A DNA stretch of 64,000 bases. Origin: Eledone cirrhosa (lineage: Eukaryota). The stretch covers positions 222,022,001 to 222,086,000 of the forward strand of contig OZ024743.1 of the NCBI GenBank assembly GCA_964016885.1, written 5' to 3'. Shown piece by piece: positions 38,961 to 64,000 of this stretch. The position numbers and the translations under genes were made by a program. Numbering within the stretch: position 1 is the first letter of the stretch; every line of letters starts with the position of its first letter. The notes under the pieces are model-generated. The model searched no databases. It worked only from the letters and a program-made list of their open reading frames with translations, and was not told where the DNA came from.

Positions 38961-39221
38961 ATGTGTCTGTAAATTAAAGGTGGAAAACTGGAAGAGGGCA
39001 TTTTCCCTGGTGGTCAGGGTTACTGTGGCTTTTTAATGGGCTTTCTCCACGAATGTCCCTCGGAAGTCTCCCCCGTATTGGGGATTTTTCAGTGTTATTT
39101 TTTTGTTACATCCTCTGTTTTTGTTTTTTACACGCAGAAATGCCCATTTATACCGCCCTGTATTGTCCTGTACTGTCCTTAATGTCTACTTTATGTAAAC
39201 CCTTATGGTTAATAAAGAAAG

Positions 39222-39273
<52 letters not shown>
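38958..39273 (+). mobile_element. Solo 3' end of the Tx1-like LINE (last ORF2 codons, 3' UTR, (ATT)17)
   Basis: Aligns to 45028-45355 with substitutions and small deletions. Confidence 0.9.
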
Positions 39274-39490
39274 GAATGCTATGGTTGACGGAGGCTCGGC
39301 TCTGTAAGGTACTGTAAATTTTGAACGCTTTAACAATTGTAAATTGTTTAAAACTTAGACCAACTTGTAGACAAAAACACCCTCCTCCTCGTGAGAGGGG
39401 TCTTTCTGCCCGTTATTTGGCCCTTCGGGGTTAAATAACTGCTTATTGGGGGTTTGTACCCAATATTTATTTTAAACAAAAAAAAACAAC

Positions 39491-41587
39491 ATGGCTACGA
39501 AAAAGAATTTGCATAGGTCACTCCCACTCATTCCGTCTTCTTCTTCCTCAATCGTCACTACAGCAGAGAGAAGATTGTCTCTCTCCCTCCCTTCTTTAAA
39601 TGTGTCTCTCTCCCTCCCTTCTCTTTCGCAAGTGACGAAAGAAAAGAAAAGTCTCGTGCAAAGCGTGCAAGGTTTCTCCACGACGACGACGACAGCGACG
39701 AAACAGGTGTGCGGGAAATACGAAAACCCAGTTCATTCGTCTGACGTCAGGAATAATAGCAGTAGCAGCCGTAATAACAACAGCAACAGTGACAATGAAA
39801 ACAACAGTAGCAGCCGCAACAGCATCACCAGCAGCATAAACAACAACAGCATTAGCAGCAGCAACACCAACAACAACCACAGCAACAGCGGCGGAGGCAG
39901 TAGTCGTAGTACCTGCAGCAACAACAAAAGTACCAGCAGCTCTGACGACAACAACAACAGCAGAGAAAAACCAATCTCATTTGCAGGTATTGCGAAAAAC
40001 CTGGAAACAATCCTCATAACAAATGAGGAATTAGAGGAAGCGAAGAAGATGGTGACAAAGAACGGACACCGAGCAATCTGCAAGGCAGCGAAAAATTTTT
40101 TCGAAACCCAAGAGCACTGTACGGTCACGTACCGTACAGTAAGTACAAAATCCCGTAGGGTGGAAAGAGCCACAGAGGCCCAAATACAAAAAGCCTTGGG
40201 GTCTGTGTGGCAGAGGAAAACGCACATCACCCGAGGCAAAAAATACGCCACCGTAGACGTACTTTTTGCCACACCCCAGGAGGCAAAGGCCCAATCAGTA
40301 GTGACCCTAAGGAGCGAGGAAATGGTGTTGGTGCCCTCCTACTGCGGGCAAAAAATTGTGAGGGTCAAACTGACCCACGTCCCCCCCGGAATGACCCCTT
40401 CTTGGCTGGCCGCGTCTGTCCTCGTCGGAATCGAGGACAAAACAACTGTACTGCAAGTACAGAAAAAAGTAAGAGAAGATTGGGTCGGCTCCTCCATTGA
40501 GATGCTAATCCAAACCAACCAGGAGTGCATCGAAGCTATCCCGGATGTGATAGACTTCGATAACGGCACTCAACTGCCCATAAGTGTTGAGGGCAAACGC
40601 CCGAAATGCTTTCGCTGTGGATCGAAGACTCACCTCAGGGCCTTCTGCAACGAGAAGACCCTGAGAAAGGAGAAAACCCCCCTCCTCCCGAATCCGGTTC
40701 CACGGCTACCAGCAACAGGACAAGCGGCAACCAGGAACGATAGGTCCGTGGCACCCATACCCACTCCACGGAAATCAAAGACAGCAGCAGCAGTGGAAAT
40801 ATTAACAACAACAACAGCAATACCAAATGCAGCTGCAACAGAGACTCCAGTGCAAACATCACCAACAACAACAAGTGAAAGAGTGGAGCTGGTACCCCTC
40901 CCCGACCTTACAGAATCAGACATGGAGTGTGAGGTGGGAGAGGGATGGCAAAAGGTCTCAAGAAGGCACAAACGCAGAAGCAGCGCATCGTCGCCTTTGA
41001 AAAGGGAGGAAAGAAATGAGAAAAGGGTAAAGTCTACTGCAAAGAGACCCACAGCAGCAACAACACCAACACCATCACCACCCACACCAGCACCACCATC
41101 ACCACCGGCGACAACCCCACCGCCAACAACACCTTCAACACCACCACCACAAGCACCAACATCGCAAACACAACAACAAAACACACACACCCAGCAACAA
41201 CGACAAGAAAATAGCAGAACCACACCCCACCCCCAGAAAAACAAATGCACGGCAATAAACACACACAACAAGAAACTAATGACTTACATAATTGAACACA
41301 CAGACATTTCACAACAGGACTACATAATACCAGCACCAATCAAAACGCCAACTAACATAAGACTGCTAAAAATAGCACAGAAACAATACACAAACATTAA
41401 AACGAAATTCCCCAACGCAGTTGGTGATTTCAGGGACCTAGGAGGAACCATTAATCGAAGAGTATATTCAGACATTCTCTTAGAAGAGCCGACGACCAGC
41501 CGAAGGGACGATTCAACGGTCCCTTCACCAGACGATCAAGTGAAAAGGGATGTAAAAACCATCCCTCCTCTACCAAAAATACGGTAA
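39491..41587 (+). CDS. LINE ORF1 (698 aa): S/N-rich N-terminus, CCHC zinc knuckle, P/T-rich linker
   Basis: CFRCGSKTHLRAFC (CX2CX4HX4C); GWQKVSRRHKRR; lies upstream of ORF2. Confidence 0.9.
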   Translation: MATKKNLHRSLPLIPSSSSSIVTTAERRLSLSLPSLNVSLSLPSLSQVTKEKKSLVQSVQGFSTTTTTATKQVCGKYENPVHSSDVRNNSSSSRNNNSNSDNENNSSSRNSITSSINNNSISSSNTNNNHSNSGGGSSRSTCSNNKSTSSSDDNNNSREKPISFAGIAKNLETILITNEELEEAKKMVTKNGHRAICKAAKNFFETQEHCTVTYRTVSTKSRRVERATEAQIQKALGSVWQRKTHITRGKKYATVDVLFATPQEAKAQSVVTLRSEEMVLVPSYCGQKIVRVKLTHVPPGMTPSWLAASVLVGIEDKTTVLQVQKKVREDWVGSSIEMLIQTNQECIEAIPDVIDFDNGTQLPISVEGKRPKCFRCGSKTHLRAFCNEKTLRKEKTPLLPNPVPRLPATGQAATRNDRSVAPIPTPRKSKTAAAVEILTTTTAIPNAAATETPVQTSPTTTSERVELVPLPDLTESDMECEVGEGWQKVSRRHKRRSSASSPLKREERNEKRVKSTAKRPTAATTPTPSPPTPAPPSPPATTPPPTTPSTPPPQAPTSQTQQQNTHTQQQRQENSRTTPHPQKNKCTAINTHNKKLMTYIIEHTDISQQDYIIPAPIKTPTNIRLLKIAQKQYTNIKTKFPNAVGDFRDLGGTINRRVYSDILLEEPTTSRRDDSTVPSPDDQVKRDVKTIPPLPKIR

Positions 41588-41622
41588 GTGGTCTTTCCCA
41601 TCTTTTCCACTCTATTTTAAAC

Positions 41623-44600
41623 ATGACCTCACTCAGAATAGGCAGCATAAATGCGCGTGGCTTGGGGTCGTCATGGAAGCAGGGTCACCTGCTCAACGAC
41701 CTCAGGTCACTAAACATAGATGTAGTGGCCATCAGCGAGACCAGAATCTCCGAAGCACGGGCCTTCGCACCGATCTTCGGCGGCTACGATGTGTACGCAT
41801 CTCCCAGCCGTCCTGGATCCGGTGGAGGAGTTGCTGTGCTTTTTCGGAGAGGTTTGGATCTCGCCATACGGGCCATCTTCCTGGACCCAGAGGGTAAGCT
41901 GGTGGTGCTGGACGTGACCAGCGGAGACGGGCAAGCTTTCAGGCTAGTGGCCGTCTATGCCCCGACAGGAGCAGGGCGGCCTGATTTCTTCCGGCGTCTG
42001 GAGACCTTTCTTGGAACGTCGCGCTCTTTAGTGTTAGTGGGCGACTGGAACGGGATCTTAGATGCACGCTGGGACTGTGTGGGATTAGCGGATAGGGGTG
42101 GAGGGTGCAAGAGCCTCACCAACCTGCTCAGGCGTTTTGAACTGTCTGACAGGTACCGATTGGATTTCCCGAATGTGCCAATGTGGACTTGGACAAACCG
42201 CATAGGGTCATCCAGATCATATCTAGATAGAGTATTTTGTAGGGAAATAGATAGGTCTAGCATAGGCTGTCCACAATTCAAGATAGTCAGCTACACGGAC
42301 CACAAATTCGTGATCTGTGTGCTTGACTTAGATAGGCTTCATAGACGAGGACCCGGCTACTGGAAGCTAAACGCGTCCTTACCAGCGCGCAAGGCCTACA
42401 GAGACCGGATTAGCGAACTAGTTAAGCGGGCGTTGACGGGGGCCATCGTCAACAACAAGTGGTGGTTTGCTCTGAAAAGAGCGATTAGAATAGAATCGAT
42501 TAGGTTTAGTAAGGCTTTAGCAATAGAGAAAAATAGAGCAGAGGGAGAACTAGTTAGAAAATTAGACGAGGCGCTTAGCAAAGGCATTGCGACCGACGTG
42601 CTTGCGGCGAAATTGGCCCTTGACCAATTCTTCAATGCAAAGCACGAAGGCTGCGTTGTCAGAGCTAGGGTGCGTGCTCTCAGACACGAGGGGACGAAAG
42701 CCGTTCAATGGGCCCGAGTGGCGGAGGCGCGTCGTGGCAACAAAGCCACGATCCGGTCTTTGGTGGACCACGACGGGCGCATGCTACTCGATCCCGGGCA
42801 AATGTGTGAAGCTTTTCAGCGACACTTCGCTCAGCTGTTCGGGGGCAGCGGGGGGCCGGGTAGAGGGATGGACTTTAGTGTCTACCTCGACGGACTGCCG
42901 CGGCTCTCGGCCACTGAGGCGAAGTGTTGCGAAAAGCCGATAACAGCCGCTGAAGTAAGGGAGGCAATGACTGGCTGCACAAGGGGTAAATCGCCTGGTT
43001 TGGATGGTCTGCCCTATGAACTTTACGTACAGATGCCAGACTTGTTCGGAGGCCTCTTGGCGGACGTCTACTGCAACTGGCAACAGAACGGGAGAATTCC
43101 CAGTTCTGTGAGCCGAGGAGCGGTGGCACTGCTGAGAAAGGATCCGAACAAGGGGGATAACATAGACAATTTCCGGCCCATAACTCTGCTAAACACAGAG
43201 TTTAAGATTTTGGCCAAGGTGCTAGCAAAGAGGTTGGCGCTTGTCGTTGGTGGTCTGGTGGGAGAGGCGCAGACATGCGCCATTCCCGACAGATCCATCC
43301 ACGACAACCTCCACCTCATGCGATACATCGTAGAGAAGGTAGCTAGGGAACCTGGCACGGGTGGGTCCTTGATCAATTTAGATCAGTCGAAAGCTTTCGA
43401 TAGGGTCGACCATCGTTACCTAGCGGCAGTCCTGAGGGCGGCTGGCTTTGGGCCCGTCTTCAGAGGCTGGATCGCTGCCATGCACAGCGACATCTGCTCT
43501 GTGGTGAGAGTGAACGGTCACCTGTCGGAACCGTTCAACATCATGCGCTCGGTCCGCCAAGGATGTCCCCTCTCGTCCCTCTTGTACGTATTGACTCTCG
43601 AGCCATTACTGCACAAACTGGAGACGTTGAGGGGAGTCCCGCGCGAACTAGGATGCGGAAGATCCGTGTCAGCATATGCGGACGATGTCACCGTAGTGGT
43701 GTCGAACGCCAAACACATCGAGGCGATCGGCACTACACTAAGAGAATACGAAGCGGTGACAGGAGCAATGATCAACCAGGAAAAGTCAGTGGGCCTGCAG
43801 CTCGGCACCTGGAGAGGCAGGTCCATGCCGTCCAACAGCGTCGTCGGGCGCTGGACGGACGGACCGGTTAAATTGCTAGGGGTCTGGTTCGGTCCGGACC
43901 TCCAGACGGACAAAAACTGGGACGAGGTGACGAGCAGGGTGGCTTCTCTCACCCAGAAATGGGCGGAGAGGAAGCTATCCCTGAAAGGTCGAGCGGAGGT
44001 GGCTAACGCGTACATCGCGTCTGTCATCTGCTACCGCCTAACCGTCGTACCTTGTCCTAAGCCTCGCCTGACTGCGCTGGAGCGTTTGCTCTTTCGCTTT
44101 TTGTGGAAGGGACGTGCTCCGATGGTCAGGCGGTCCATCTGTTGTCAACACCCGCTACGTGGAGGGCTGGGCATGCCGTGGCTGATGATGCGCAGGCACG
44201 CGCTCAGGCTACGACATCTCCACCTCTTCCTCGACGGTGATCAGGTGTGGTCGCCGTTTGCTAGACGCGTTTTTCCCCAGCTCGTTTCCTTGACGGAGCT
44301 GCAGTCCTGGGTCAAGCGAAGACCGAGAGGGAGCGCCTGGAGACTGGAATGTCTTCAGGCGCTCACAGCCCTCGACCAATCGGGCAATGTGATCGGTGGA
44401 AACTCCACCTCGGCGTTCTATAGAGGATTAGTGGAGGGGAAGAGCGACGACGTACTTGGGGAAACTCTAGGCGTCGACGAAAATCAACTAGCCAATCTCT
44501 TCGGAAGAACCTTCGGGCCAGGGCCTATGGACAACTTCCAGAAATCTCTGGCCTGGCAGTGCTACCGAGGAGCCTTGCCAGTTCGGGATAAACTCTACAG

Positions 44601-45042
44601 GCATGGAGGTGCCGTCAGCCGGGCATGTCCGAGATGCGCGCAGGGCGACGAAACCGTCCTGCACGCACTCGTCCAGTGTCCGAAAATTGCTGACTTGTGG
44701 GTTTATGTCGAACACCTGCTGTCGCGTTTAGGACGGATCCAGCTATCATCTGAGTCTATCGTGAGGATTGCCCCGCCCTCCTCCTTTAGCCGGGAAGGGC
44801 AGGCAGTTTTTATCTGTCTGGTGGCCATGGCGAAAGAGATAGTATGGTGGACACGTTTGAAAGGGCTGAAGACGAGCACTTACCTCTTCGGTGATGCTCT
44901 GATTGACTTTTTCAAATTTCATTTGAAAAGGAAAATCAGAGTAGAGAAGGAAGTGCTCTCTTCCCAGCATTTTGTTGAAAGATGGGTGAGAGAAGCAAGA
45001 ATGGCCCGAGTGAATGGGCCGACTCTGAGTATATATCTGTAA
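41623..45042 (+). CDS. LINE ORF2 (1139 aa): AP endonuclease, RT, C-terminal zinc finger; L1/Tx1-like
   Basis: SINARGL, SET, VYAP, GDWN, YLDRVF, TDH, GPGYWKLN, KSPGLDGLP.E.Y, FRPITLLN, DQSKAFDRV, RQGCPLS, YADD, GGLG, CPRC....ETVLHALVQC. Confidence 0.96.
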   Translation: MTSLRIGSINARGLGSSWKQGHLLNDLRSLNIDVVAISETRISEARAFAPIFGGYDVYASPSRPGSGGGVAVLFRRGLDLAIRAIFLDPEGKLVVLDVTSGDGQAFRLVAVYAPTGAGRPDFFRRLETFLGTSRSLVLVGDWNGILDARWDCVGLADRGGGCKSLTNLLRRFELSDRYRLDFPNVPMWTWTNRIGSSRSYLDRVFCREIDRSSIGCPQFKIVSYTDHKFVICVLDLDRLHRRGPGYWKLNASLPARKAYRDRISELVKRALTGAIVNNKWWFALKRAIRIESIRFSKALAIEKNRAEGELVRKLDEALSKGIATDVLAAKLALDQFFNAKHEGCVVRARVRALRHEGTKAVQWARVAEARRGNKATIRSLVDHDGRMLLDPGQMCEAFQRHFAQLFGGSGGPGRGMDFSVYLDGLPRLSATEAKCCEKPITAAEVREAMTGCTRGKSPGLDGLPYELYVQMPDLFGGLLADVYCNWQQNGRIPSSVSRGAVALLRKDPNKGDNIDNFRPITLLNTEFKILAKVLAKRLALVVGGLVGEAQTCAIPDRSIHDNLHLMRYIVEKVAREPGTGGSLINLDQSKAFDRVDHRYLAAVLRAAGFGPVFRGWIAAMHSDICSVVRVNGHLSEPFNIMRSVRQGCPLSSLLYVLTLEPLLHKLETLRGVPRELGCGRSVSAYADDVTVVVSNAKHIEAIGTTLREYEAVTGAMINQEKSVGLQLGTWRGRSMPSNSVVGRWTDGPVKLLGVWFGPDLQTDKNWDEVTSRVASLTQKWAERKLSLKGRAEVANAYIASVICYRLTVVPCPKPRLTALERLLFRFLWKGRAPMVRRSICCQHPLRGGLGMPWLMMRRHALRLRHLHLFLDGDQVWSPFARRVFPQLVSLTELQSWVKRRPRGSAWRLECLQALTALDQSGNVIGGNSTSAFYRGLVEGKSDDVLGETLGVDENQLANLFGRTFGPGPMDNFQKSLAWQCYRGALPVRDKLYRHGGAVSRACPRCAQGDETVLHALVQCPKIADLWVYVEHLLSRLGRIQLSSESIVRIAPPSSFSREGQAVFICLVAMAKEIVWWTRLKGLKTSTYLFGDALIDFFKFHLKRKIRVEKEVLSSQHFVERWVREARMARVNGPTLSIYL

Positions 45043-45302
45043 ACTAAAGGTGGAAAACTGGGAGAGGGCACTTGCCTTGGTGGTCAGGGTCATTGTGGCT
45101 TTTTACTGGGCTTTCTCCACAAATGTTCCTCCGAAGTCTCCCCCCTATTGGGGAATTTTTCATTGTTATTTTCATTGTTATTTTTGTTACATCCTCTGTT
45201 TTTGTTTTTTTACACGCAGAAATGCCCATTTGTACCGTCCTGCATTGTCCTGCACTGTCCTTAATGTCTACTTTATGTAAACCCTTGTGGTTAATAAAGA
45301 AA

Positions 45303-45355
<53 letters not shown>

Positions 45356-47663: not shown

Positions 47664-47698
47664 GTGGTCTTTCCCATCTTTTCCACTCTATTTTAAAC

Positions 47699-51378: not shown

Positions 51379-51422
<44 letters not shown>

Positions 51423-51639
51423 GAATGCTATGGTTGACGGAGGCTCGGCTCTGTAAGGTACTGTAAATTTTGAACGCTTTAACAATTGTAAATTGTTTAA
51501 AACTTAGACCAACTTGTAGACAAAAACACCCTCCTCCTCGTGAGAGGGGTCTTTCTGCCCGTTATTTGGCCCTTCGGGGTTAAATAACTGCTTATTGGGG
51601 GTTTGTACCCAATATTTATTTTAAACAAAAAAAAACAAC

Positions 51640-53730
51640 ATGGCTACGAAAAAGAATTTGCATAGGTCACTCCCACTCATTCCGTCTTCTTCTTCCTCAA
51701 TCGTCACTACAGCAGAGAGAAGATTGTCTCTCTCCCTCCCTTCTTTAAATGTGTCTCTCTCCCTCCCTTCTCTTTCGCAAGTGACGAAAGAAAAGAAAAG
51801 TCTCGTGCAAAGCGTGCAAGGTTTCTCCACGACGACGACGACAGCGACGAAACAGGTGTGCGGGAAATACGAAAACCCAGTTCATTCGTCTGACGTCAGG
51901 AATAATAGCAGTAGCAGCCGTAATAACAACAGCAACAGTGACAATGAAAACAACAGTAGCAGCCGCAACAGCATCACCAGCAGCATAAACAACAACAGCA
52001 TTAGCAGCAGCAACACCAACAACAACCACAGCAACAGCGGCGGAGGCAGTAGTCGTAGTACCTGCAGCAACAACAAAAGTACCAGCAGCTCTGACGACAA
52101 CAACAACAGCAGAGAAAAACCAATCTCATTTGCAGGTATTGCGAAAAATTTGGAAACAATCCTCATAACAAATGAGGAATTAGAGGAAGCGAAGAAGATG
52201 GTGACAAAGAACGGACACCGAGCAATCTGCAAGGCAGCGAAAAATTTTTTCGAAACCCAAGAGCACTGTACGGTCACGTACCGTACAGTAAGTACAAAAT
52301 CCCGTAGGGTGGAAAGAGCCACAGAGGCCCAAATACAAAAAGCCTTGGGGTCTGTGTGGCAGCGGAAAACGCACATCACCCGAGGCAAAAAATATGCCAC
52401 CGTAGACGTACTTTTTGCCACACCCCAGGAGGCAAAGGCCCAATCAGTAGTGACCCTAAGGAGCGAGGAAATGGTGTTGGTGCCCTCCTACTGTGGGCAA
52501 AAAATTGTGAGGGTCAAACTGACCCACGTCCCCCCCGGAATGACCCCTTCTTGGCTGGCCGCGTCTGTCCTCGTCGGAATCGAGGACAAAACAACTGTAC
52601 TGCAAGTACAGAAAAAAGTAAGAGAAGATTGGGTCGGCTCCTCCATTGAGATGCTAATCCAAACCAACCAGGAGTGCATCGAAGCTATCCCGGATGTGAT
52701 AGACTTCGATAACGGCACTCAACTTCCCATAAGTGTTGAGGGCAAACGCCCGAAATGCTTTCGCTGTGGATCGAAGACTCACCTCAGGGCCTTCTGCAAC
52801 GAGAAGACCCTGAGAAAGGAGAAAACCCCCCTCCTTCCGAATCCGGCTCCACGGCTACCAGCAACAGGACAAGCGGCAACCAGGAACGATAGGTCCGTGG
52901 CACCCATACCCACTCCACGGAAATCAAAGACAGCAGCAGCAGTGGAAATATTAACAACAACAACAGCAATACCAAATGCAGCTGCAACAGAGACTCCAGT
53001 GCAAACATCACCAACAACAACAAGTGAAAGAGTGGAGCTGGTACCCCTCCCCGACCTTACAGAATCAGACATGGAGTGTGAGGTGGGAGAGGGATGGCAA
53101 AAGGTCGCAAGAAGGCACAAACGCAGAAGCAGCGCATCGTCGCCTTTGAAAAGGGAGGAAAGAAATGAGAAAAGGGTAAAGTCTACTGCAAAGAGACCCA
53201 CAGCAGCAACACCACCAACACCATCACCACCCACACCAGCACCACCATCACCACCGGCGACAACCCCACCGCCAACAACACCTTCAACACCACAAGCACC
53301 AACATCGCAAACACAACAACAAAACACACACACCCAGCAACAACGACAAGAAAATAGCAGAACCACACCCCACCCCCAGAAAAACAAATGCACGGCAATA
53401 AACACACACAACAAGAAACTAATGACTTACATAATTGAACACACAGACATTTCACAACAGGACTACATAATACCAGCACCAATCAAAACGCCAACTAACA
53501 TAAGACTGCTAAAAATAGCACAGAAACAATACACAAACATTAAAACGAAATTCCCCAACGCAGTTGGTGATTTCAGGGACCTAGGAGGAACCATTAATCG
53601 AAGAGTATATTCAGACATTCTCTTAGAAGAGCCGACGACCAGCCGAAGGGACGATTCAACGGTCCCTTCACCAGACGATCAAGTGAAAAGGGATGTAAAA
53701 ACCATCCCTCCTCTACCAAAAATACGGTAA
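51640..53730 (+). CDS. LINE ORF1 (696 aa)
   Basis: As above, with NPAP and VARR variants. Confidence 0.9.
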   Translation: MATKKNLHRSLPLIPSSSSSIVTTAERRLSLSLPSLNVSLSLPSLSQVTKEKKSLVQSVQGFSTTTTTATKQVCGKYENPVHSSDVRNNSSSSRNNNSNSDNENNSSSRNSITSSINNNSISSSNTNNNHSNSGGGSSRSTCSNNKSTSSSDDNNNSREKPISFAGIAKNLETILITNEELEEAKKMVTKNGHRAICKAAKNFFETQEHCTVTYRTVSTKSRRVERATEAQIQKALGSVWQRKTHITRGKKYATVDVLFATPQEAKAQSVVTLRSEEMVLVPSYCGQKIVRVKLTHVPPGMTPSWLAASVLVGIEDKTTVLQVQKKVREDWVGSSIEMLIQTNQECIEAIPDVIDFDNGTQLPISVEGKRPKCFRCGSKTHLRAFCNEKTLRKEKTPLLPNPAPRLPATGQAATRNDRSVAPIPTPRKSKTAAAVEILTTTTAIPNAAATETPVQTSPTTTSERVELVPLPDLTESDMECEVGEGWQKVARRHKRRSSASSPLKREERNEKRVKSTAKRPTAATPPTPSPPTPAPPSPPATTPPPTTPSTPQAPTSQTQQQNTHTQQQRQENSRTTPHPQKNKCTAINTHNKKLMTYIIEHTDISQQDYIIPAPIKTPTNIRLLKIAQKQYTNIKTKFPNAVGDFRDLGGTINRRVYSDILLEEPTTSRRDDSTVPSPDDQVKRDVKTIPPLPKIR

Positions 53731-53765
53731 GTGGTCTTTCCCATCTTTTCCACTCTATTTTAAAC

Positions 53766-56700
53766 ATGACCTCACTCAGAATAGGCAGCATAAATGCGCG
53801 TGGCTTGGGGTCGTCATGGAAGCAGGGTCACCTGCTCAACGACCTCAGGTCACTAAACATAGATGTAGTGGCCATCAGCGAGACCAGAATCTCCGAAGCA
53901 CGGGCCTTCGCACCGATCTTCGGCGGCTACGATGTGTACGCATCTCCCAGCCGTCCTGGATCCGGTGGAGGAGTTGCTGTACTTTTTCGGAGAGGTTTGG
54001 ATCTCGCCATACGGGCCATCTTCCTGGACCCAGAGGGTAAGCTGGTGGTGCTGGACGTGACCAGCGGAGACGGGCAATCTTTCAGGCTAGTGGCCGTCTA
54101 TGCCCCGACAGGAGCAGGGCGGCCTGATTTCTTCCGGCGTCTGGAGACCTTTCTTGGAACGTCCCGCTCTTTAGTGTTAGTGGGCGACTGGAACGGGATC
54201 TTAGATGCACGCTGGGACTGTGTGGGATTAGCGGATAGGGGTGGAGGGTGCAAGAGCCTCACCAACCTGCTCAGGCGTTTTGAACTGTCTGACAGGTACC
54301 GATTGGATTTCCCGAATGTGCCAATGTGGACTTGGACAAACCGCTTAGGGTCATCCAGATCATATCTAGATAGAGTATTTTGTAGGGAAATAGATAGGTC
54401 TAGCATAGGCTGTCCACAATTCAAGATAGTCAGCTACACGGACCACAAATTCGTGACCTGTGTGCTTGACTTAGATAGGCTTCATAGACGAGGACCCGGC
54501 TACTGGAAGCTAAACGCGTCCTTACCAGCGCGCAAGGCCTACAGAGACCGGATTAGCGAACTAGTTAAGCGGGCGTTGACGGGGGCCATCGTCAACAACA
54601 AGTGGTGGTTTGCTCTGAAAAGAGCGATTAGAATAGAATCGATTAGGTTTAGTAAGGCTTTAGCAATAGAGAAAAATAGAGCAGAGGGAGAACTAGTTAG
54701 AAAATTAGACGAGGCGCTTAGCAAAGGCATTGCGACCGACGTGCTTGCGGCGGAATTGGCCCTTGACCAATTCTTCAATGCAAAGCACGAAGGCTGCGTT
54801 GTCAGAGCTAGGGTGCGTGCTCTCAGACACGAGGGGACGAAAGCCGTTCAATGGGCCCGAGTGGCGGAGGCGCGTCGTGGCAACAAAGCCACGATCCGGT
54901 CTTTGGTGGACCACGACGGGCGCATGCTACTCGATCCCGGGCAAATGTGTGAAGCTTTTCAGCGACACTTCGCTCAGCTGTTCGGGGGCAGCGGGGGGCC
55001 GGGTAGAGGGATGGACTTTAGTGTCTACCTCGACGGACTGCCGCGGCTCTCGGCCACTGAGGCGAGGTGTTGCGAAAAGCCGATAACAGCCGCTGAAGTA
55101 CGGGAGGCAATGACTGGCTGCACAAGGGGTAAATCGCCTGGTTTGGATGGTCTGCCCTATGAACTTTACGTACAGATGCCAGACTTGTTCGGAGGCCTCT
55201 TGGCGGACGTCTACTGCAACTGGCAACAGAACGGGAGAATTCCCAGTTCTGTGAGCCGAGGAGCGGTGGCACTGCTGAGAAAGGATCCGAACAAGGGGGA
55301 TAACATAGACAATTTCCGGCCCATAACTCTGCTAAACACAGAGTTTAAGATTTTGGCCAAGGTGCTAGCAAAGAGGTTGGCGCTTGTCGTTGGTGGTCTG
55401 GTGGGAGAGGCGCAGACATGCGCCATTCCCGACAGATCCATCCACGACAACCTCCACCTCATGCGATACATCGTAGAGAGGGTAGCTAGGGAACCTGGCA
55501 CGGGTGGGTCCTTGATCAATTTAGATCAGTCGAAAGCTTTCGATAGGGTCGACCATCGTTACCTAGCGGCAGTCCTGAGGGCGGCTGGCTTTGGGCCCGT
55601 CTTCAGAGGCTGGATCGCTGCCATGCACAGCGACATCTGCTCTGTGGTGAGAGTGAACGGTCACCTGTCGGAACCGTTCAACATCATGCGCTCGGTCCGC
55701 CAAGGATGTCCCCTCTCGTCCCTCTTGTACGTATTGACTCTCGAGCCATTACTGCACAAACTGGAGACGTTGAGGGGAGTCCCGCGCGAACTAGGATGCG
55801 GAAGATCCGTGTCAGCATATGCGGACGATGTCACCGTAGTGGTGTCGAACGCCAAACACATCGAGGCGATCGGCACTACACTAAGAGAATACGAAGCGGT
55901 GACAGGAGCAATGATCAACCAGGAAAAGTCAGTGGGCCTGCAGCTCGGCACCTGGAGAGGCAGATCCATGCCGTCCAACAGCGTCGTCGGGCGCTGGACG
56001 GACGGACCGGTTAAATTGCTAGGGGTCTGGTTCGGTCCGGACCTCCAGACGGACAAAAACTGGGACGAGGTGACGAGCAGGGTGGCTTCTCTCACCCAGA
56101 AATGGGCGGAGAGGAAGCTATCCCTGAAAGGTCGAGCGGAGGTGGCTAACGCGTACATCGCGTCTGTCATCTGCTACCGCCTAACCGTCGTACCTTGTCC
56201 TAAGCCTCGCCTGACTGCGCTGGAGCGTTTGCTCTTTCGCTTTTTGTGGAAGGGACGTGCTCCGATGGTCAGGCGGTCCATCTGTTGTCAACACCCGCTA
56301 CGTGGAGGGCTGGGCATGCCGTGGCTGATGATGCGCAGGCACGCGCTCAGGCTACGACATCTCCACCTCTTCCTCGACGGTGATCAGGTGTGGTCGCCGT
56401 TTGCTAGACGCGTTTTTCCCCAGCTCGTTTCCTTGACGGAGCTGCAGTCCTGGGTCAAGCGAAGACCGAGAGGGAGCGCCTGGAGACTGGAATGTCTTCA
56501 GGCGCTCACAGCCCTCGACCAATCGGGCAATGTGATCGGTGGAAACTCCACCTCGGCGTTCTATAGAGGATTAGTGGAGGGGAAGAGCGACGACGTACTT
56601 GGGGAAACTCTAGGCGTCGACGAAAATCAACTAGCCAATCTCTTCGGAAGAACTTTCGGGCCAGGGCCTATGGACAACTTCCAGAAATCTCTGGCCTGGC

Positions 56701-57185
56701 AGTGCTACCGAGGAGCCTTGCCAGTTCGGGATAAACTCTACAGGCATGGAGGTGCCGTCAGCCGGGCATGTCCGAGATGCGCGCAGGGCGACGAAACCGT
56801 CCTGCACGCACTCGTCCAGTGTCCGAAAATTGCTGACTTGTGGGTTTATGTCGAACACCTGCTGTCGCGTTTAGGACGGATCCAGCTATCATCTGAGTCT
56901 ATCGTGAGGATTGCCCCGCCCTCCTCCTTTAGCCGGGAAGGGCAGGCAGTTTTTATCTGTCTGGTGGCCATGGCGAAAGAGATAGTATGGTGGACACGTT
57001 TGAAAGGGCTGAAGACGAGCACTTACCTCTTCGGTGATGCTCTGATTGACTTTTTCAAATTTCATTTGAAAAGGAAAATCAGAGTAGAGAAGGAAGTGCT
57101 CTCTTCCCAGCATTTTGTTGAAAGATGGGTGAGAGAAGCAAGAATGGCCCGAGTGAATGGGCCGACTCTGAGTATATATCTGTAA
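53766..57185 (+). CDS. LINE ORF2 (1139 aa)
   Basis: Intact; variants GQSF, NRLG, FVTC, AAEL, EARCC, VERV. Confidence 0.96.
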   Translation: MTSLRIGSINARGLGSSWKQGHLLNDLRSLNIDVVAISETRISEARAFAPIFGGYDVYASPSRPGSGGGVAVLFRRGLDLAIRAIFLDPEGKLVVLDVTSGDGQSFRLVAVYAPTGAGRPDFFRRLETFLGTSRSLVLVGDWNGILDARWDCVGLADRGGGCKSLTNLLRRFELSDRYRLDFPNVPMWTWTNRLGSSRSYLDRVFCREIDRSSIGCPQFKIVSYTDHKFVTCVLDLDRLHRRGPGYWKLNASLPARKAYRDRISELVKRALTGAIVNNKWWFALKRAIRIESIRFSKALAIEKNRAEGELVRKLDEALSKGIATDVLAAELALDQFFNAKHEGCVVRARVRALRHEGTKAVQWARVAEARRGNKATIRSLVDHDGRMLLDPGQMCEAFQRHFAQLFGGSGGPGRGMDFSVYLDGLPRLSATEARCCEKPITAAEVREAMTGCTRGKSPGLDGLPYELYVQMPDLFGGLLADVYCNWQQNGRIPSSVSRGAVALLRKDPNKGDNIDNFRPITLLNTEFKILAKVLAKRLALVVGGLVGEAQTCAIPDRSIHDNLHLMRYIVERVAREPGTGGSLINLDQSKAFDRVDHRYLAAVLRAAGFGPVFRGWIAAMHSDICSVVRVNGHLSEPFNIMRSVRQGCPLSSLLYVLTLEPLLHKLETLRGVPRELGCGRSVSAYADDVTVVVSNAKHIEAIGTTLREYEAVTGAMINQEKSVGLQLGTWRGRSMPSNSVVGRWTDGPVKLLGVWFGPDLQTDKNWDEVTSRVASLTQKWAERKLSLKGRAEVANAYIASVICYRLTVVPCPKPRLTALERLLFRFLWKGRAPMVRRSICCQHPLRGGLGMPWLMMRRHALRLRHLHLFLDGDQVWSPFARRVFPQLVSLTELQSWVKRRPRGSAWRLECLQALTALDQSGNVIGGNSTSAFYRGLVEGKSDDVLGETLGVDENQLANLFGRTFGPGPMDNFQKSLAWQCYRGALPVRDKLYRHGGAVSRACPRCAQGDETVLHALVQCPKIADLWVYVEHLLSRLGRIQLSSESIVRIAPPSSFSREGQAVFICLVAMAKEIVWWTRLKGLKTSTYLFGDALIDFFKFHLKRKIRVEKEVLSSQHFVERWVREARMARVNGPTLSIYL

Positions 57186-57445
57186 ACTAAAGGTGGAAAA
57201 CTGGGAGAGGGCACTTGCCTTGGTGGTCAGGGTCATTGTGGCTTTTTACTGGGCTTTCTCCACAAATGTCCCTCCGAAGTCTCCCCCCTATTGGGGAATT
57301 TTTCATTGTTATTTTCATTGTTATTTTTGTTACATCCTCTGTTTTTGTTTTTTTACACGCAGAAATGCCCATTTGTACCGTCCTGCATTGTCCTGCACTG
57401 TCCTTAATGTCTACTTTATGTAAACCCTTGTGGTTAATAAAGAAA

Positions 57446-57498
<53 letters not shown>

Positions 57499-57715
57499 GA
57501 ATGCTATGGTTGACGGAGGCTCGGCTCTGTAAGGTACTGTAAATTTTGAACGCTTTAACAATTGTAAATTGTTTAAAACTTAGACCAACTTGTAGACAAA
57601 AACACCCTCCTCCTCGTGAGAGGGGTCTTTCTGCCCGTTATTTGGCCCTTCGGGGTTAAATAACTGCTTATTGGGGGTTTGTACCCAATATTTATTTTAA
57701 ACAAAAAAAAACAAC

Positions 57716-59812
57716 ATGGCTACGAAAAAGAATTTGCATAGGTCACTCCCACTCATTCCGTCTTCTTCTTCCTCAATCGTCACTACAGCAGAGAGAAGAT
57801 TGTCTCTCTCCCTCCCTTCTTTAAATGTGTCTCTCTCCCTCCCTTCTCTTTCGCAAGTGACGAAAGAAAAGAAAAGTCTCGTGCAAAGCGTGCAAGGTTT
57901 CTCCACGACGACGACGACAGCGACGAAACAGGTGTGCGGGAAATACGAAAACCCAGTTCATTCGTCTGACGTCAGGAATAATAGCAGTAGCAGCCGTAAT
58001 AACAACAGCAACAGTGACAATGAAAACAACAGTAGCAGCCGCAACAGCATCACCAGCAGCATAAACAACAACAGCATTAGCAGCAGCAACACCAACAACA
58101 ACCACAGCAACAGCGGCGGAGGCAGTAGTCGTAGTACCTGCAGCAACAACAAAAGTACCAGCAGCTCTGACGACAACAACAACAGCAGAGAAAAACCAAT
58201 CTCATTTGCAGGTATTGCGAAAAATTTGGAAACAATCCTCATAACAAATGAGGAATTAGAGGAAGCGAAGAAGATGGTGACAAAGAACGGACACCGAGCA
58301 ATCTGCAAGGCAGCGAAAAATTTTTTCGAAACCCAAGAGCACTGTACGGTCACGTACCGTACAGTAAGTACAAAATCCCGTAGGGTGGAAAGAGCCACAG
58401 AGGCCCAAATACAAAAAGCCTTGGGGTCTGTGTGGCAGCGGAAAACGCACATCACCCGAGGCAAAAAATATGCCACCGTAGACGTACTTTTTGCCACACC
58501 CCAGGAGGCAAAGGCCCAATCAGTAGTGACCCTAAGGAGCGAGGAAATGGTGTTGGTGCCCTCCTACTGTGGGCAAAAAATTGTGAGGGTCAAACTGACC
58601 CACGTCCCCCCCGGAATGACCCCTTCTTGGCTGGCCGCGTCTGTCCTCGTCGGAATCGAGGACAAAACAACTGTACTGCAAGTACAGAAAAAAGTAAGAG
58701 AAGATTGGGTCGGCTCCTCCATTGAGATGCTAATCCAAACCAACCAGGAGTGCATCGAAGCTATCCCGGATGTGATAGACTTCGATAACGGCACTCAACT
58801 TCCCATAAGTGTTGAGGGCAAACGCCCGAAATGCTTTCGCTGTGGATCGAAGACTCACCTCAGGGCCTTCTGCAACGAGAAGACCCTGAGAAAGGAGAAA
58901 ACCCCCCTCCTTCCGAATCCGGCTCCACGGCTACCAGCAACAGGACAAGCGGCAACCAGGAACGATAGGTCCGTGGCACCCATACCCACTCCACGGAAAT
59001 CAAAGACAGCAGCAGCAGTGGAAATATTAACAACAACAACAGCAATACCAAATGCAGCTGCAACAGAGACTCCAGTGCAAACATCACCAACAACAACAAG
59101 TGAAAGAGTGGAGCTGGTACCCCTCCCCGACCTTACAGAATCAGACATGGAGTGTGAGGTGGGAGAGGGATGGCAAAAGGTCGCAAGAAGGCACAAACGC
59201 AGAAGCAGCGCATCGTCGCCTTTGAAAAGGGAGGAAAGAAATGAGAAAAGGGTAAAGTCTACTGCAAAGAGACCCACAGCAGCAACACCACCAACACCAT
59301 CACCACCCACACCAGCACCACCATCACCACCGGCGACAACCCCACCGCCAACAACACCTTCAACACCACCACCACAAGCACCAACATCGCAAACACAACA
59401 ACAAAACACACACACCCAGCAACAACGACAAGAAAATAGCAGAACCACACCCCACCCCCAGAAAAACAAATGCACGGCAATAAACACACACAACAAGAAA
59501 CTAATGACTTACATAATTGAACACACAGACATTTCACAACAGGACTACATAATACCAGCACCAATCAAAACGCCAACTAACATAAGACTGCTAAAAATAG
59601 CACAGAAACAATACACAAACATTAAAACGAAATTCCCCAACGCAGTTGGTGATTTCAGGGACCTAGGAGGAACCATCAATCGAAGAGTATATTCAGACAT
59701 TCTCTTAGAAGAGCCGACGACCAGCCGAAGGGACGATTCAACGGTCCCTTCACCAGACGATCAAGTGAAAAGGGATGTAAAAACCATCCCTCCTCTACCA
59801 AAAGTACGGTAA
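57716..59812 (+). CDS. LINE ORF1 (698 aa)
   Basis: As above, with NPAP, VARR and PKVR variants. Confidence 0.9.
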   Translation: MATKKNLHRSLPLIPSSSSSIVTTAERRLSLSLPSLNVSLSLPSLSQVTKEKKSLVQSVQGFSTTTTTATKQVCGKYENPVHSSDVRNNSSSSRNNNSNSDNENNSSSRNSITSSINNNSISSSNTNNNHSNSGGGSSRSTCSNNKSTSSSDDNNNSREKPISFAGIAKNLETILITNEELEEAKKMVTKNGHRAICKAAKNFFETQEHCTVTYRTVSTKSRRVERATEAQIQKALGSVWQRKTHITRGKKYATVDVLFATPQEAKAQSVVTLRSEEMVLVPSYCGQKIVRVKLTHVPPGMTPSWLAASVLVGIEDKTTVLQVQKKVREDWVGSSIEMLIQTNQECIEAIPDVIDFDNGTQLPISVEGKRPKCFRCGSKTHLRAFCNEKTLRKEKTPLLPNPAPRLPATGQAATRNDRSVAPIPTPRKSKTAAAVEILTTTTAIPNAAATETPVQTSPTTTSERVELVPLPDLTESDMECEVGEGWQKVARRHKRRSSASSPLKREERNEKRVKSTAKRPTAATPPTPSPPTPAPPSPPATTPPPTTPSTPPPQAPTSQTQQQNTHTQQQRQENSRTTPHPQKNKCTAINTHNKKLMTYIIEHTDISQQDYIIPAPIKTPTNIRLLKIAQKQYTNIKTKFPNAVGDFRDLGGTINRRVYSDILLEEPTTSRRDDSTVPSPDDQVKRDVKTIPPLPKVR

Positions 59813-59847
59813 GTGGTCTTTCCCATCTTTTCCACTCTATTTTAAAC

Positions 59848-62800
59848 ATGACCTCACTCAGAATAGGCAGCATAAATGCGCGTGGCTTGGGGTCGTCATG
59901 GAAGCAGGGTCACCTGCTCAACGACCTCAGGTCACTAAACATAGATGTAGTGGCCATCAGCGAGACCAGAATCTCCGAAGCACGGGCCTTCGCACCGATC
60001 TTCGGCGGCTACGATGTGTACGCATCTCCCAGCCGTCCTGGATCGGGTGGAGGAGTTGCTGTGCTTTTTCGGAGAGGTTTGGATCTCGCCATACGGGCCA
60101 TCTTCCTGGACCCAGAGGGTAAGCTGGTGGTGCTGGACGTGACCAGCGGAGACGGGCAAGCTTTCAGGCTAGTGGCCGTCTATGCCCCGACAGGAGCAGG
60201 GCGGCCTGATTTCTTCCGGCGTCTGGAGACCTTTCTTGGAACGTCCCGCTCTTTAGTGTTAGTGGGCGACTGGAACGGGATCTTAGATGCACGCTGGGAC
60301 TGTGTGGGATTAGCGGATAGGGGTGGAGGGTGCAAGAGCCTCACCAACCTGCTCAGGCGTTTTGAACTGTCTGACAGGTACCGATTGGATTTCCCGAATG
60401 TGCCAATGTGGACTTGGACAAACCGCATAGGGTCATCCAGATCATATCTAGATAGAGTATTTTGTAGGGAAATAGATAGGTCTAGCATAGGCTGTCCACA
60501 ATTCAAGATAGTCAGCTACACGGACCACAAATTCGTGATCTGTGTGCTTGACTTAGATAGGCTTCATAGACGAGGACCCGGCTACTGGAAGCTAAACGCG
60601 TCCTTACCAGCGCGCAAGGCCTACAGAGACCGGATTAGCGAACTAGTTAAGCGGGCGTTGACGGGGGCCATCGTCAACAACAAGTGGTGGTTTGCTCTGA
60701 AAAGAGCGATTAGAATAGAATCGATTAGGTTTAGTAAGGCTTTAGCAATAGAGAAAAATAGAGCAGAGGGAGAACTAGTTAGAAAATTAGACGAGGCGCT
60801 TAGCAAAGGCATTGCGACCGACGTGCTTGCGGCGAAATTGGCCCTTGACCAATTCTTCAATGCAAAGCACGAAGGCTGCGTTGTCAGAGCTAGGGTGCGT
60901 GCTCTCAGACACGAGGGGACGAAAGCCGTTCAATGGGCCCGAGTGGCGGAGGCGCGTCGTGGCAACAAAGCCACGATCCGGTCTTTGGTGGACCACGACG
61001 GGCGCATGCTACTCGATCCCGGGCAAATGTGTGAAGCTTTTCAGCGACACTTCGCTCAGCTGTTCGGGGGCAGCGGTGGGCCGGGTAGAGGGATGGACTT
61101 TAGTGTCTACCTCGACGGACTGCCGCGGCTCTCGGCCACTGAGGCGAAGTGTTGCGAAAAGCCGATAACAGCCGCTGAAGTAAGGGAGGCAATGACTGGC
61201 TGCACAAGGGGTAAATCGCCTGGTTTGGATGGTCTGCCCTATGAACTTTACGTACAGATGCCAGACTTGTTCGGAGGCCTCTTGGCGGACGTCTACTGCA
61301 ACTGGCAACAGAACGGGAGAATTCCCAGTTCTGTGAGCCGAGGAGCGGTGGCACTGCTGAGAAAGGATCCGAACAAGGGGGATAACATAGACAATTTCCG
61401 GCCCATAACTCTGCTAAACACAGAGTTTAAGATTTTGGCCAAGGTGCTAGCAAAGAGGTTGGCGCTTGTCGTTGGTGGTCTGGTGGGAGAGGCGCAGACA
61501 TGCGCCATTCCCGACAGATCCATCCACGACAACCTCCACCTCATGCGATACATCGTAGAGAGGGTAGCTAGGGAACCTGGCACGGGTGGGTCCTTGATCA
61601 ATTTAGATCAGTCGAAAGCTTTCGATAGGGTCGACCATCGTTACCTAGCGGCAGTCCTGAGGGCGGCTGGCTTTGGGCCCGTCTTCAGAGGCTGGATCGC
61701 TGCCATGCACAGCGACATCTGCTCTGTGGTGAGAGTGAACGGTCACCTGTCGGAACCGTTCAACATCATGCGCTCGGTCCGCCAAGGATGTCCCCTCTCG
61801 TCCCTCTTGTACGTATTGACTCTCGAGCCATTACTGCACAAACTGGAGACGTTGAGGGGAGTCCCGCGCGAACTAGGATGCGGAAGATCCGTGTCAGCAT
61901 ATGCGGACGATGTCACCGTAGTGGTGTCGAACGCCAAACACATCGAGGCGATCGGCACTACACTAAGAGAATACGAAGCGGTGACAGGAGCAATGATCAA
62001 CCAGGAAAAGTCAGTGGGCCTGCAGCTCGGCACCTGGAGAGGCAGGTCCATGCCGTCCAACAGCGTCGTCGGGCGCTGGACGGACGGACCGGTTAAATTG
62101 CTAGGGGTCTGGTTCGGTCCGGACCTCCAGACGGACAAAAACTGGGACGAGGTGACGAGCAGGGTGGCTTCTCTCACCCAGAAATGGGCGGAGAGGAAGC
62201 TATCCCTGAAAGGTCGAGCGGAGGTGGCTAACGCGTACATCGCGTCTGTCATCTGCTACCGCCTAACCGTCGTACCTTGTCCTAAGCCTCGCCTGACTGC
62301 GCTGGAGCGTTTGCTCTTTCGCTTTTTGTGGAAGGGACGTGCTCCGATGGTCAGGCGGTCCATCTGTTGTCAACACCCGCTACGTGGAGGGCTGGGCATG
62401 CCGTGGCTGATGATGCGCAGGCACGCGCTCAGGCTACGACATCTCCACCTCTTCCTCGACGGTGATCAGGTGTGGTCGCCGTTTGCTAGACGCGTTTTTC
62501 CCCAGCTCGTTTCCTTGACGGAGCTGCAGTCCTGGGTCAAGCGAAGACCGAGAGGGAGCGCCTGGAGACTGGAATGTCTTCAGGCGCTCACAGCCCTCGA
62601 CCAATCGGGCAATGTGATCGGTGGAAACTCCACCTCGGCGTTCTATAGAGGATTAGTGGAGGGGAAGAGCGACGACGTACTTGGGGAAACTCTAGGCGTC
62701 GACGAAAATCAACTAGCCAATCTCTTCGGAAGAACTTTCGGGCCGGGGCCTATGGACAACTTCCAGAAATCTCTGGCCTGGCAGTGCTACCGAGGAGCCT

Positions 62801-63267
62801 TGCCAGTTCGGGATAAACTCTACAGGCATGGAGGTGCCGTCAGCCGGGCATGTCCGAGATGCGCGAAGGGCGACGAAACCGTCCTGCACGCACTCGTCCA
62901 GTGTCCGAAAATTGCTGACTTGTGGGTTTATGTCGAACACCTGCTGTCGCGTTTAGGACGGATCCAGCTATCATCTGAGTCTATCGTGAGGATTGCCCCG
63001 CCCTCCTCCTTTAGCCGGGAAGGGCAGGCAGTTTTTATCTGTCTGGTGGCCATGGCGAAAGAGATAGTATGGTGGACACGTTTGAAAGGGCTGAAGACGA
63101 GCACTTACCTCTTCGGTGATGCTCTCATTGACTTTTTCAAATTTCATTTGAAAAGGAAAATCAGAGTAGAGAGGGAAGTGCTCTCTTCCCAGCATTTTGT
63201 TGAAAGATGGGTGAGAGAAGCAAGAATGGCCCGAGTGAATGGGCCTACTCTGAGCATATATCTGTAA
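59848..63267 (+). CDS. LINE ORF2 (1139 aa)
   Basis: Intact; variants VERV, CAKG, VEREV. Confidence 0.96.
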   Translation: MTSLRIGSINARGLGSSWKQGHLLNDLRSLNIDVVAISETRISEARAFAPIFGGYDVYASPSRPGSGGGVAVLFRRGLDLAIRAIFLDPEGKLVVLDVTSGDGQAFRLVAVYAPTGAGRPDFFRRLETFLGTSRSLVLVGDWNGILDARWDCVGLADRGGGCKSLTNLLRRFELSDRYRLDFPNVPMWTWTNRIGSSRSYLDRVFCREIDRSSIGCPQFKIVSYTDHKFVICVLDLDRLHRRGPGYWKLNASLPARKAYRDRISELVKRALTGAIVNNKWWFALKRAIRIESIRFSKALAIEKNRAEGELVRKLDEALSKGIATDVLAAKLALDQFFNAKHEGCVVRARVRALRHEGTKAVQWARVAEARRGNKATIRSLVDHDGRMLLDPGQMCEAFQRHFAQLFGGSGGPGRGMDFSVYLDGLPRLSATEAKCCEKPITAAEVREAMTGCTRGKSPGLDGLPYELYVQMPDLFGGLLADVYCNWQQNGRIPSSVSRGAVALLRKDPNKGDNIDNFRPITLLNTEFKILAKVLAKRLALVVGGLVGEAQTCAIPDRSIHDNLHLMRYIVERVAREPGTGGSLINLDQSKAFDRVDHRYLAAVLRAAGFGPVFRGWIAAMHSDICSVVRVNGHLSEPFNIMRSVRQGCPLSSLLYVLTLEPLLHKLETLRGVPRELGCGRSVSAYADDVTVVVSNAKHIEAIGTTLREYEAVTGAMINQEKSVGLQLGTWRGRSMPSNSVVGRWTDGPVKLLGVWFGPDLQTDKNWDEVTSRVASLTQKWAERKLSLKGRAEVANAYIASVICYRLTVVPCPKPRLTALERLLFRFLWKGRAPMVRRSICCQHPLRGGLGMPWLMMRRHALRLRHLHLFLDGDQVWSPFARRVFPQLVSLTELQSWVKRRPRGSAWRLECLQALTALDQSGNVIGGNSTSAFYRGLVEGKSDDVLGETLGVDENQLANLFGRTFGPGPMDNFQKSLAWQCYRGALPVRDKLYRHGGAVSRACPRCAKGDETVLHALVQCPKIADLWVYVEHLLSRLGRIQLSSESIVRIAPPSSFSREGQAVFICLVAMAKEIVWWTRLKGLKTSTYLFGDALIDFFKFHLKRKIRVEREVLSSQHFVERWVREARMARVNGPTLSIYL

Positions 63268-63539
63268 ATTAAAGGTGGAAAACTGGGAGAGGGCACTTGC
63301 CTTGGTGGTCAGGGTCATTGTGGCTTTTTACTGGGCTTTCACCACAAATGTCCCTCCGAAGTCTCCCCCCTATTGGGGAATTTTTCATTGTTATTTTCAT
63401 TGTTATTTTTGTTACATCCTCTGTTTTTGTTTTTTTTACACGCAGAAATGCCCATTTGTACCGTCCTGCATTGTCCTGCACTGTCCTTAATGTCTACTTT
63501 ATGTAAACCCTTGTGGTTAATAAAGAAATCATTATTATT

Positions 63540-64000
63540 TGAGTCTCAGTCATTGATGTTATTTAACTGGAAAGTTTGTTGAAATGAATATCAAGCCACT
63601 ACCTGCAGCCTCAGATATTCAGGACGTATCGGAGGGTTCTTACTGTTCCCAGCAAGCATGCCTTTTGAAGTGTTCCAAAAAGCGGGGCGAGACCAATTTT
63701 CTTTAACTATCCTTGGAAACTATTTGAGATAGTACCTAGTGCGCCTATGACAATCGGGACCAGTATGTGTCTGTAAATTAAAGGTGGAAAACTGGAAGAG
63801 GGCATTTTCCCTGGTGGTCAGGGTTACTGTGGCTTTTTAATGGGCTTTCTCCACGAATGTCCCTCGGAAGTCTCCCCCGTATTGGGGATTTTTCAGTGTT
63901 ATTTTTTTGTTACATCCTCTGTTTTTGTTTTTTACACGCAGAAATGCCCATTTATACCGCCCTGTATTGTCCTGTACTGTCCTTAATGTCTACTTTATGT
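63540..64000. repeat. Direct repeat of 38736-39196 (R4/Dong-like 3' fragment on minus plus solo Tx1 3' end), running off the window
   Basis: No differences seen by eye over 461 bp; offset 24,804 bp. Confidence 0.95.

Follow-up and report, generated by a model that had tools for sequence, protein, structure and literature searches.

In a 64,000-nucleotide stretch of the Eledone cirrhosa genome (the window, C4:222022001-222086000), two identical copies of a composite cassette flank four LINE copies (c1 to c4) inside an 11-copy head-to-tail array and, judging from the assembled sequence, these two cassettes are a single local duplication. The explanation we favour, to which we give a probability of about 0.55, is that c4 primed at an ATT tract upstream of the first cassette and that its cDNA was finished on a resident downstream LINE, duplicating about 0.9-1.3 kb. 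It is likely that the 5′ end of the new LINE was copied from an older neighbour, and that such copying is recurrent enough to help build arrays of hybrid elements.

The duplicated cassette and its array

The window was analysed together with 58 kb more sequence to its right (122 kb in all, with no N); extended coordinates plus 222,022,000 give the position on C4. The features of the array are the following.

38051..38713, plus strand: old diverged LINE 3′ tail (~73-74% identity with the young copies, blastn) that anchors the array on its left
38715..38735, plus strand: (ATT)7 tract, last three units repeated at 63531-63539; putative priming site of c4
38736..38958, minus strand: cassette 1 part A, the 223-bp 3′ end of an R2/R4/Dong-like RLE LINE
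38959..39225, plus strand: cassette 1 part B, a 267-bp solo 3′ UTR of a sister L1/Tx1-type subfamily
39223..39273, plus strand: (ATT)17 tract, of equal length behind both cassettes
39274..45306, plus strand: LINE c1, ORF1 and ORF2 (EN, RT, zf-RVT) open; local 5′ end, body matching dispersed copy L088
45356..51382, plus strand: LINE c2, first 726 bp as in c3, body matching dispersed L088/D10, switch at 361-726
51423..57449, plus strand: LINE c3, as c4 until ~1685-1870, then another haplotype
57499..63532, plus strand: LINE c4, first 726 bp as in c6; its 3′ end makes the new junction
63531..63539, plus strand: (ATT)3 junction between c4 and cassette 2; the c4-(ATT)3-cassette string occurs once in the genome
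63540..64000 in the window (to 64029 extended), plus strand: cassette 2, then (ATT)17 to 64077
64078-70110 extended, beyond the window: LINE c5
70160-76193 extended, beyond the window: LINE c6
Further beyond the window: LINEs c7-c10, then the older c11 (100452-106435 extended), the LINEs separated by (ATT)6-17

Direct comparison within the window gave no mismatch between 63540-64000 and 38736-39196 (461/461 bp), exactly as the first-pass annotation had reported, and with the genome sequence beyond the window included the cassette and its (ATT)17 tract are identical between the copies at 538/538 positions. Both cassettes carry an in-frame TAG in the minus-strand RLE-LINE fragment (38903-38905 and 63707-63709), where the dispersed copy L003 has TGG, and the same annotation was right in describing this stop codon as common to both instances and the solo 3′ UTR as unlike that of the four full copies, to which it is ~88% identical. 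It had also distinguished the left contexts correctly, since the left cassette is preceded by the old ~73%-identical LINE tail and ATC(ATT)7, and the right one by c4 and (ATT)3. Its remark that the repeat is far longer than an ordinary target-site duplication (TSD) stands too: 547 bp are visible and the exact run, beginning at 38727/63531, is 553 bp, against the 4-20 bp direct repeat of an ordinary L1-type TSD (PMC4859970).

Because the nearest dispersed RLE-LINE parts are only 97-98% identical (best copies, 40 scored of 1,050 candidates) and the internal chimeric junction of the cassette was found at two sites in the 3.0 Gb genome, both in this array, a chance match is excluded, and the cassette was duplicated locally. 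The two halves of the cassette meet at 38958/38959 without ATT and with ~1 base of microhomology, a 5′-truncated sister-subfamily UTR having taken the place of the remaining RLE-LINE, which suggests that an older insertion deleted its target or that a template switch took place.

The array LINEs belong to a family with ~2,807 5′ ends genome-wide (at most one mismatch). Their ORF2 has the domains PF03372 (APE endonuclease), PF00078 (RT) and PF13966 (zf-RVT), as expected of an L1/Tx1-type ORF2, and its best solved-structure match is human L1 ORF2p (E 4e-52, versus 1e-21 for R2). The 698-aa ORF1 gave no Pfam hits and contains a C-x2-C-x4-H-x4-C motif, a candidate CCHC zinc knuckle. Among the first 100 5′ ends listed, all on C1, 97 are preceded by at least five ATT units and 18 lie directly behind a family-type 3′ end; Kojima calls a LINE target-specific when one target type makes up more than 20% of its flanks (PMC4494074), and by this measure the family is target-specific. 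For part A of the cassette, the 208-aa frame of its dispersed relative L003 matches R2 proteins weakly (E 0.003), and the fragment may be of R4/Dong type. In Octopus vulgaris, recently active L1-Tx1 and Dong-R4 families have been tabulated (PMC13282606).

To the right of cassette 2 the array goes on with seven LINEs (c5-c11), each behind (ATT)6-17. All 11 copies can be told apart by 4-300 substitutions, and c11 is older, with ~280 substitutions from the other array copies. Tracts of exactly 17 units occur five times, after both cassettes and after c1, c3 and c5 (39223-57498; extended 64027-70159), and the tracts downstream of 73 dispersed copies range from 1 to 25 ATT units with a median of 14; tract length appears to be inherited from the local site and not determined by the RNA tail. 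Two copies, c5 (extended 64078-70110) and c10 (94377-100405), have an ORF1 disrupted close to its start, and c5 is nearly identical to a dispersed copy despite this, so that an ORF1-defective lineage may be moving in trans. Beyond the array (extended 108632-116675) lie two 5′-truncated relatives (95.6% and 81.3%), beginning at positions 2266 and 2347 of the element. Several upstream partners at tandem-junction loci begin at these two positions as well, a hint of a sister subfamily whose 5′ half differs, and not of random truncation. To the left of the array, at 36316-37344, there is a ~1-kb degenerate inverted repeat (70%) that is MITE-like.

Shared 5′ ends and completion on a neighbour

Seven of the 11 LINEs (c1-c4, c6, c8 and c9) have the same first 520 bp, with 0-1 differences, and c5, c7 and c10 have retained their own 5′ ends. 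The diagnostic 35-mer of the shared 5′ end is found at 63 places in the genome, seven of them in this array (binomial P ~9e-10 for 7/11 given 63 of ~2,807, the two search patterns differing in stringency), and the rate among full copies on C1 is similar (2/64). Over positions 1-726 c4 and c6 show no difference, while the nearest of 132 dispersed copies shows seven, and 727 bp are common to c1 and c6. In their bodies the array copies are closer to dispersed copies than to their downstream neighbours: past position 727, c2 is four differences away from dispersed copies and 20 from c3, its neighbour. The change from shared 5′ end to foreign body falls within 361-726 in c4, as in c2, and at ~1685-1870 in c3.

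The copy lying between c4 and c6 is likely a late arrival as far as its alleles can tell, because c5 differs from L134, on another contig, by only 3-6 substitutions and lacks private alleles, of which c6 has five. The mean number of private alleles is 1.0 for c1-c4 and 4.2 for c6-c10, and c11 has 54, a gradient that is consistent with growth of the array at its upstream end. A local kinship of c1/c2 with c5 had been considered on account of shared alleles at 728, 1414, 1425 and 1685, and was dropped, these alleles being present in 7-28 of 64 dispersed copies. At element position 5628, far from the shared 5′ end, c4 and c6 have an allele in common that is absent from 64 dispersed copies; this could be a small local conversion or reflect an unsampled source lineage.

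Under the explanation we favour, the starting site would have been the old tail, (ATT)7, the cassette, (ATT)17 and c6. The endonuclease would have nicked inside (ATT)7, leaving three units, and reverse transcription would have copied most of the LINE RNA; the cDNA end would then have annealed to c6, on the same chromatid or its sister, somewhere within positions 361-726, and DNA synthesis would have continued through the 5′ end of c6, (ATT)17 and the cassette back to the nick. The resulting duplication of ~0.9-1.3 kb would be partly hidden in LINE sequence, with only its 547-bp non-LINE part obvious. Later arrivals in front would have been c3, c2 and c1, of which c3 and c2 would have acquired the 5′ end of the neighbour; c5 would have gone in, full-length, between c6 and cassette 2, and the model requires this insertion to be a later one. 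Where priming takes place in the tract directly before a resident, the same step would only add a full-length-looking hybrid, as in c2, c3 and possibly c1. The 3′ junction is of the kind that target-primed reverse transcription (TPRT) leaves, with c4 ending in its own 3′ terminus and (ATT)3 and not in old-tail sequence. An earlier suggestion of recombination between ATT tracts holds in part, in that the new junction does lie in an ATT tract; the other end, given the 726 bp common to c4 and c6, is apparently within LINE 5′ sequence.

Near-identical flanking segments were found at two of the 73 C1 copies with both ends in view (L118, 868 bp, and L092, 888 bp, both 99.9%) and at one of the 17 tandem-junction loci with both outer ends in view (C7:80054238, 461 bp, 100%), giving the layout segment-LINE-segment-LINE at three further loci among the 90 examined. 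In 4/4 duplications, this array included, the duplicated DNA lies directly downstream of the presumed priming site and the second segment runs into ATT and the 5′ end of a homologous resident of the family, whereas only 1/13 control tracts downstream of other copies do so. These counts cover loci with a recognisable 3′ end within 10 kb (27/100 C1 loci lack one) and, for tandem junctions, those with two near-full copies (20/38 fall outside, or 21/38 for the flank test), and they extend to duplications of up to ~1.9 kb (~1.4 kb at junction loci). Matching flanks at 12 other loci (76-99% identity) did not enter the count of duplications, most of them judged by identity and offset only; L081 and L140 were among those inspected in sequence and likewise left out, and L075 was rejected because its matches are separate RLE-LINE copies with several differences.

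The chimera expected of such an insertion, with a 5′ part from the local resident and a 3′ part from a dispersed source, is seen in the array (c4/c6, if c5 is late) and at L118, and not cleanly at L092 or C7:80054238. L118 is the clearest of the three further loci, with no young LINE before the first segment. Its new LINE carries 1.5 kb of the private mutations of L119, an older degenerate downstream copy, up to 1478-1492 and has the young haplotype by 1506, with three differences to L119 before the switch and 151 after it. The narrowness of this switch window (13-27 bp) is not taken as proof of mechanism, because copies that are 95% identical would yield a narrow window in any exchange. At L092 the middle LINE departs from all downstream copies within the first 300 bp, and its last 789 bp, one indel aside, agree with the upstream copy; at C7:80054238 the middle LINE has four substitutions and one indel in 997 bp relative to the downstream copy. 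At both of these loci a young LINE tail precedes the first segment, which made simple unequal exchange available.

Sharing between neighbours was also counted at both element ends. In the 18 junction loci with two near-full copies, at least 500 identical 5′ bases were present in five, against a cross-pair background of 5/306, and at least 500 identical 3′ bases in four, against 21/306; two loci had at least 1,000 identical 3′ bases (background 0/306). When runs of at least 500 were required to be longer with the neighbour than with any other copy compared (neighbour-specific), they were found elsewhere at the 5′ end in 5/26 pairs and at the 3′ end in 2/25, leaving 21/26 pairs without a neighbour-specific 5′ run; L118/L119 is absent from the 3′ count, since L119 has no 3′ end. 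In this array 11 comparisons gave five such runs at the 5′ end, two of them between non-adjacent copies (c4/c6 and c6/c8), and none at the 3′ end. Copying of 5′ ends from the downstream neighbour thus dominates, with 3′ sharing also occurring and most pairs showing neither. The pair U11/D11 has a neighbour-specific 3′ run of 3,390 bp, implying that unequal exchange or conversion does act in these arrays.

More tentatively, and as something we hold possible rather than probable, finishing on a neighbour could be a routine integration route in this ATT-targeting family, by which truncated cDNAs are rescued into full-length, coding-intact hybrids, the ATT tail of each copy being the target of the next. 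If this were true, the arrays would be recombination factories that hand an old local promoter and ORF1 start to each incoming body, spacer duplications of 0.5-0.9 kb would be the footprint of neighbour finishing, and the model for mosaic LINE lineages in which a young 3′ end recruits an old 5′ end would have in this family a natural case that can be observed directly and counted.

Competing explanations

The most serious competitor, which we nevertheless consider unlikely, involves two steps: a normal full-length insertion upstream of the cassette, followed by an out-of-register crossover or conversion with c6 of an empty sister or homologous chromosome. It predicts the identical structure (cassette, a LINE with the c6 5′ end and a new 3′ end, cassette, c6), so that one haploid assembly cannot separate it from a one-step insertion. 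Unequal exchange of transposable-element (TE) dimers is documented (PMC5932611), and an intermediate layout without duplication exists at L134-(ATT)-~330 bp-(ATT)-L135. L092 fits exchange with the upstream copy and is probably explained in this way, and the long shared 3′ runs in U11/D11 and U32/D32 point in the same direction. In the array, however, separate exchanges would be needed for c2, c3 and c4, each in the 5′ third, and neighbour-specific 3′ sharing is absent. Identity over 538 bp including a 17-unit microsatellite, together with 726 bp of LINE, is more readily expected from the same chromatid or its sister than from a random homologue. At L118, moreover, the partners are ~4-5% divergent, and mismatch repair should suppress crossovers at such divergence.

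Less probable is a plain giant TSD, in which nicks in (ATT)7 and, 547 bp away, in (ATT)17 would have been followed by insertion of a full-length cDNA, with the shared 5′ ends arising through later gene conversion. Both visible ends do lie in ATT tracts, the target that precedes 97/100 5′ ends of the family, and long TSDs exist, with 1,228 bp reported in 1/25 ZfL2-2 insertions (PMC2666801). L092 and C7:80054238, with middle LINEs that lack a clean downstream 5′ copy, would fit this account as well, but it leaves unexplained why 4/4 duplications end at a family 5′ end (control 1/13), as well as the 726-bp identity of c4/c6 and the 1.5-kb identity of L118/L119.

An assembly artefact, that is, a haplotype switch or misjoin that placed the cassettes of an empty and a filled allele in series, appears slightly less probable again. 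The cassettes are 100% identical, the 727 bp common to c1 and c6 could act as a false overlap, and no piece bridging the c4-cassette junction was among the 32 (contigs, 3 kb) and 24 (contigs and RAD reads, 101 bp) listed of thousands. This last result neither confirms nor refutes the junction, as these are a small subset of pieces made up of k-mer contigs or RAD reads; of the 17 public read runs none was flagged as long raw reads, and depth was unusable. Against an artefact, all 11 copies are distinguishable and the 122 kb are gapless, the rare 5′ end is common to c2, c3 and c4 whatever happens at the left cassette, and the L118 chimera switches within 13-27 bp between sequences 4-5% apart, which an overlap assembler would presumably not join.

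The two remaining accounts carry very little weight. Transduction at the 3′ end, with a LINE reading through into the cassette, ending at its 3′ UTR and inserting behind the first cassette, would suit a cassette whose end is a LINE-type 3′ UTR carrying AATAAA and an ATT tail, but was rejected because it needs a source LINE upstream of a cassette elsewhere while the cassette junction is confined to this array, the left cassette follows a dead tail, and re-insertion next to its own source, out of thousands of sites, would be a coincidence. The reading of the cassette plus n LINEs as a higher-order unit, raised by the first-pass annotation and taken here as a 24.8-kb block of cassette and four LINEs amplified in tandem or duplicated by ATT-tract slippage, is refuted for this assembly. 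Cassette 2 is indeed followed by (ATT)17 and a LINE 5′ end, but c5-c8 are not copies of c1-c4 (44, 34, 54 and 48 substitutions for c1/c5, c2/c6, c3/c7 and c4/c8), and therefore there is no higher-order repeat: four and then seven LINEs follow the cassettes, with no fixed period or pattern in which copy n is nearest to copy n, and no third cassette was found in the next 58 kb to the right or elsewhere in the genome. The proposed check of the sequence past 64000 was to decide between a continuing array and a flanking duplication; the array does continue, yet the cassette is a one-off flanking duplication, and the either/or test was too simple.

Relation to known systems

The kind of mechanism favoured here is already known as an accident of human L1. 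In the literature searched, mostly papers outside subscription, we found no description of neighbour-completed 5′ ends with spacer duplication in arrays of microsatellite-targeting LINEs. Gilbert and colleagues reportedly described, in 2005, human L1 chimeric insertions completed on nearby genomic DNA. Templated, SDSA-like insertions of human L1 have been described as 22 somatic tumour events, with templates typically <250 bp, within 15 bp of the site and non-L1 (bioRxiv 10.1101/2024.08.27.596794). As in those events, the cDNA would leave its RNA and anneal to homologous DNA close by, and a genomic segment would be duplicated beside the insertion; unlike them, the present case is in an assembled genome, involves 0.46-0.89 kb of flank and up to 1.5 kb of resident LINE, and recurs inside a single array, since the element targets its own ATT tail.

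For mosaic rodent L1 families, recombination at insertion is one of three proposed models and was drawn from family-level phylogeny (PMC3600994), whereas here the likely 5′ donor still adjoins the chimera and the duplicated spacer is left as a footprint. ZfL2-2 resembles our case in the kilobase-scale direct duplication flanking a LINE insertion, which is attributed to the position of the second nick in an account that, in the portion available, involves no resident copy (PMC2666801); here a resident 5′ end terminates the duplication in 4/4 cases. Tandem TE dimers formed by double insertion are common in Drosophila, where most non-LTR tandems are tail-to-internal and 5′-truncated and R1 spacers measure 33 nt (PMC5932611). 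The array shares with these dimers and with the R1 array its head-to-tail copies, spacers of target sequence, repeated insertion at a preferred site and openness to unequal exchange, but differs in that 11 copies start at the 5′ terminus, seven with a locally shared 5′ end, and that one spacer measures 547 bp. The microsatellite-targeting Tx1-clade LINEs Kibi, in (TC)n, and Koshi, in (TTC)n, and the crocodilian families in (TTCC)n/(TTTC)n (PMC4494074) are likewise two-ORF APE-type LINEs in simple repeats; the target here is instead (ATT)n, and the family is a candidate member of Tx1.

The joining of LINE cDNA at the 5′ side and the swapping of 5′ ends in mosaic families have been studied mostly in cell culture or from family trees, whereas here the likely donor, the chimera and the duplicated spacer stand side by side. 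A genome with ~2,800 5′ ends, 18 of 100 sampled lying behind a family-type 3′ end, offers a direct test of the recombination-at-insertion model, and the proposed route would also produce kilobase local duplications that annotation would miss or call misassembly.

In the flanks of L001-L030 and L069-L168, ATT tracts are common landing sites, and minus-strand RLE-LINE 3′ ends, a second minus-strand LINE tail and two short putative SINE-like repeats recur directly beside L1/Tx1-type copies. At C4:357962766-358041597, five (ATT)8 junctions lie at multiples of ~6.06 kb over 79 kb, which points to an array of at least 14 copies; one pair, U22/D22, is identical over the first 3,620 bp. The two adjacent full copies L210-L211 (C4:63568356) differ at only three sites, which looks like a recent whole-unit tandem duplication.
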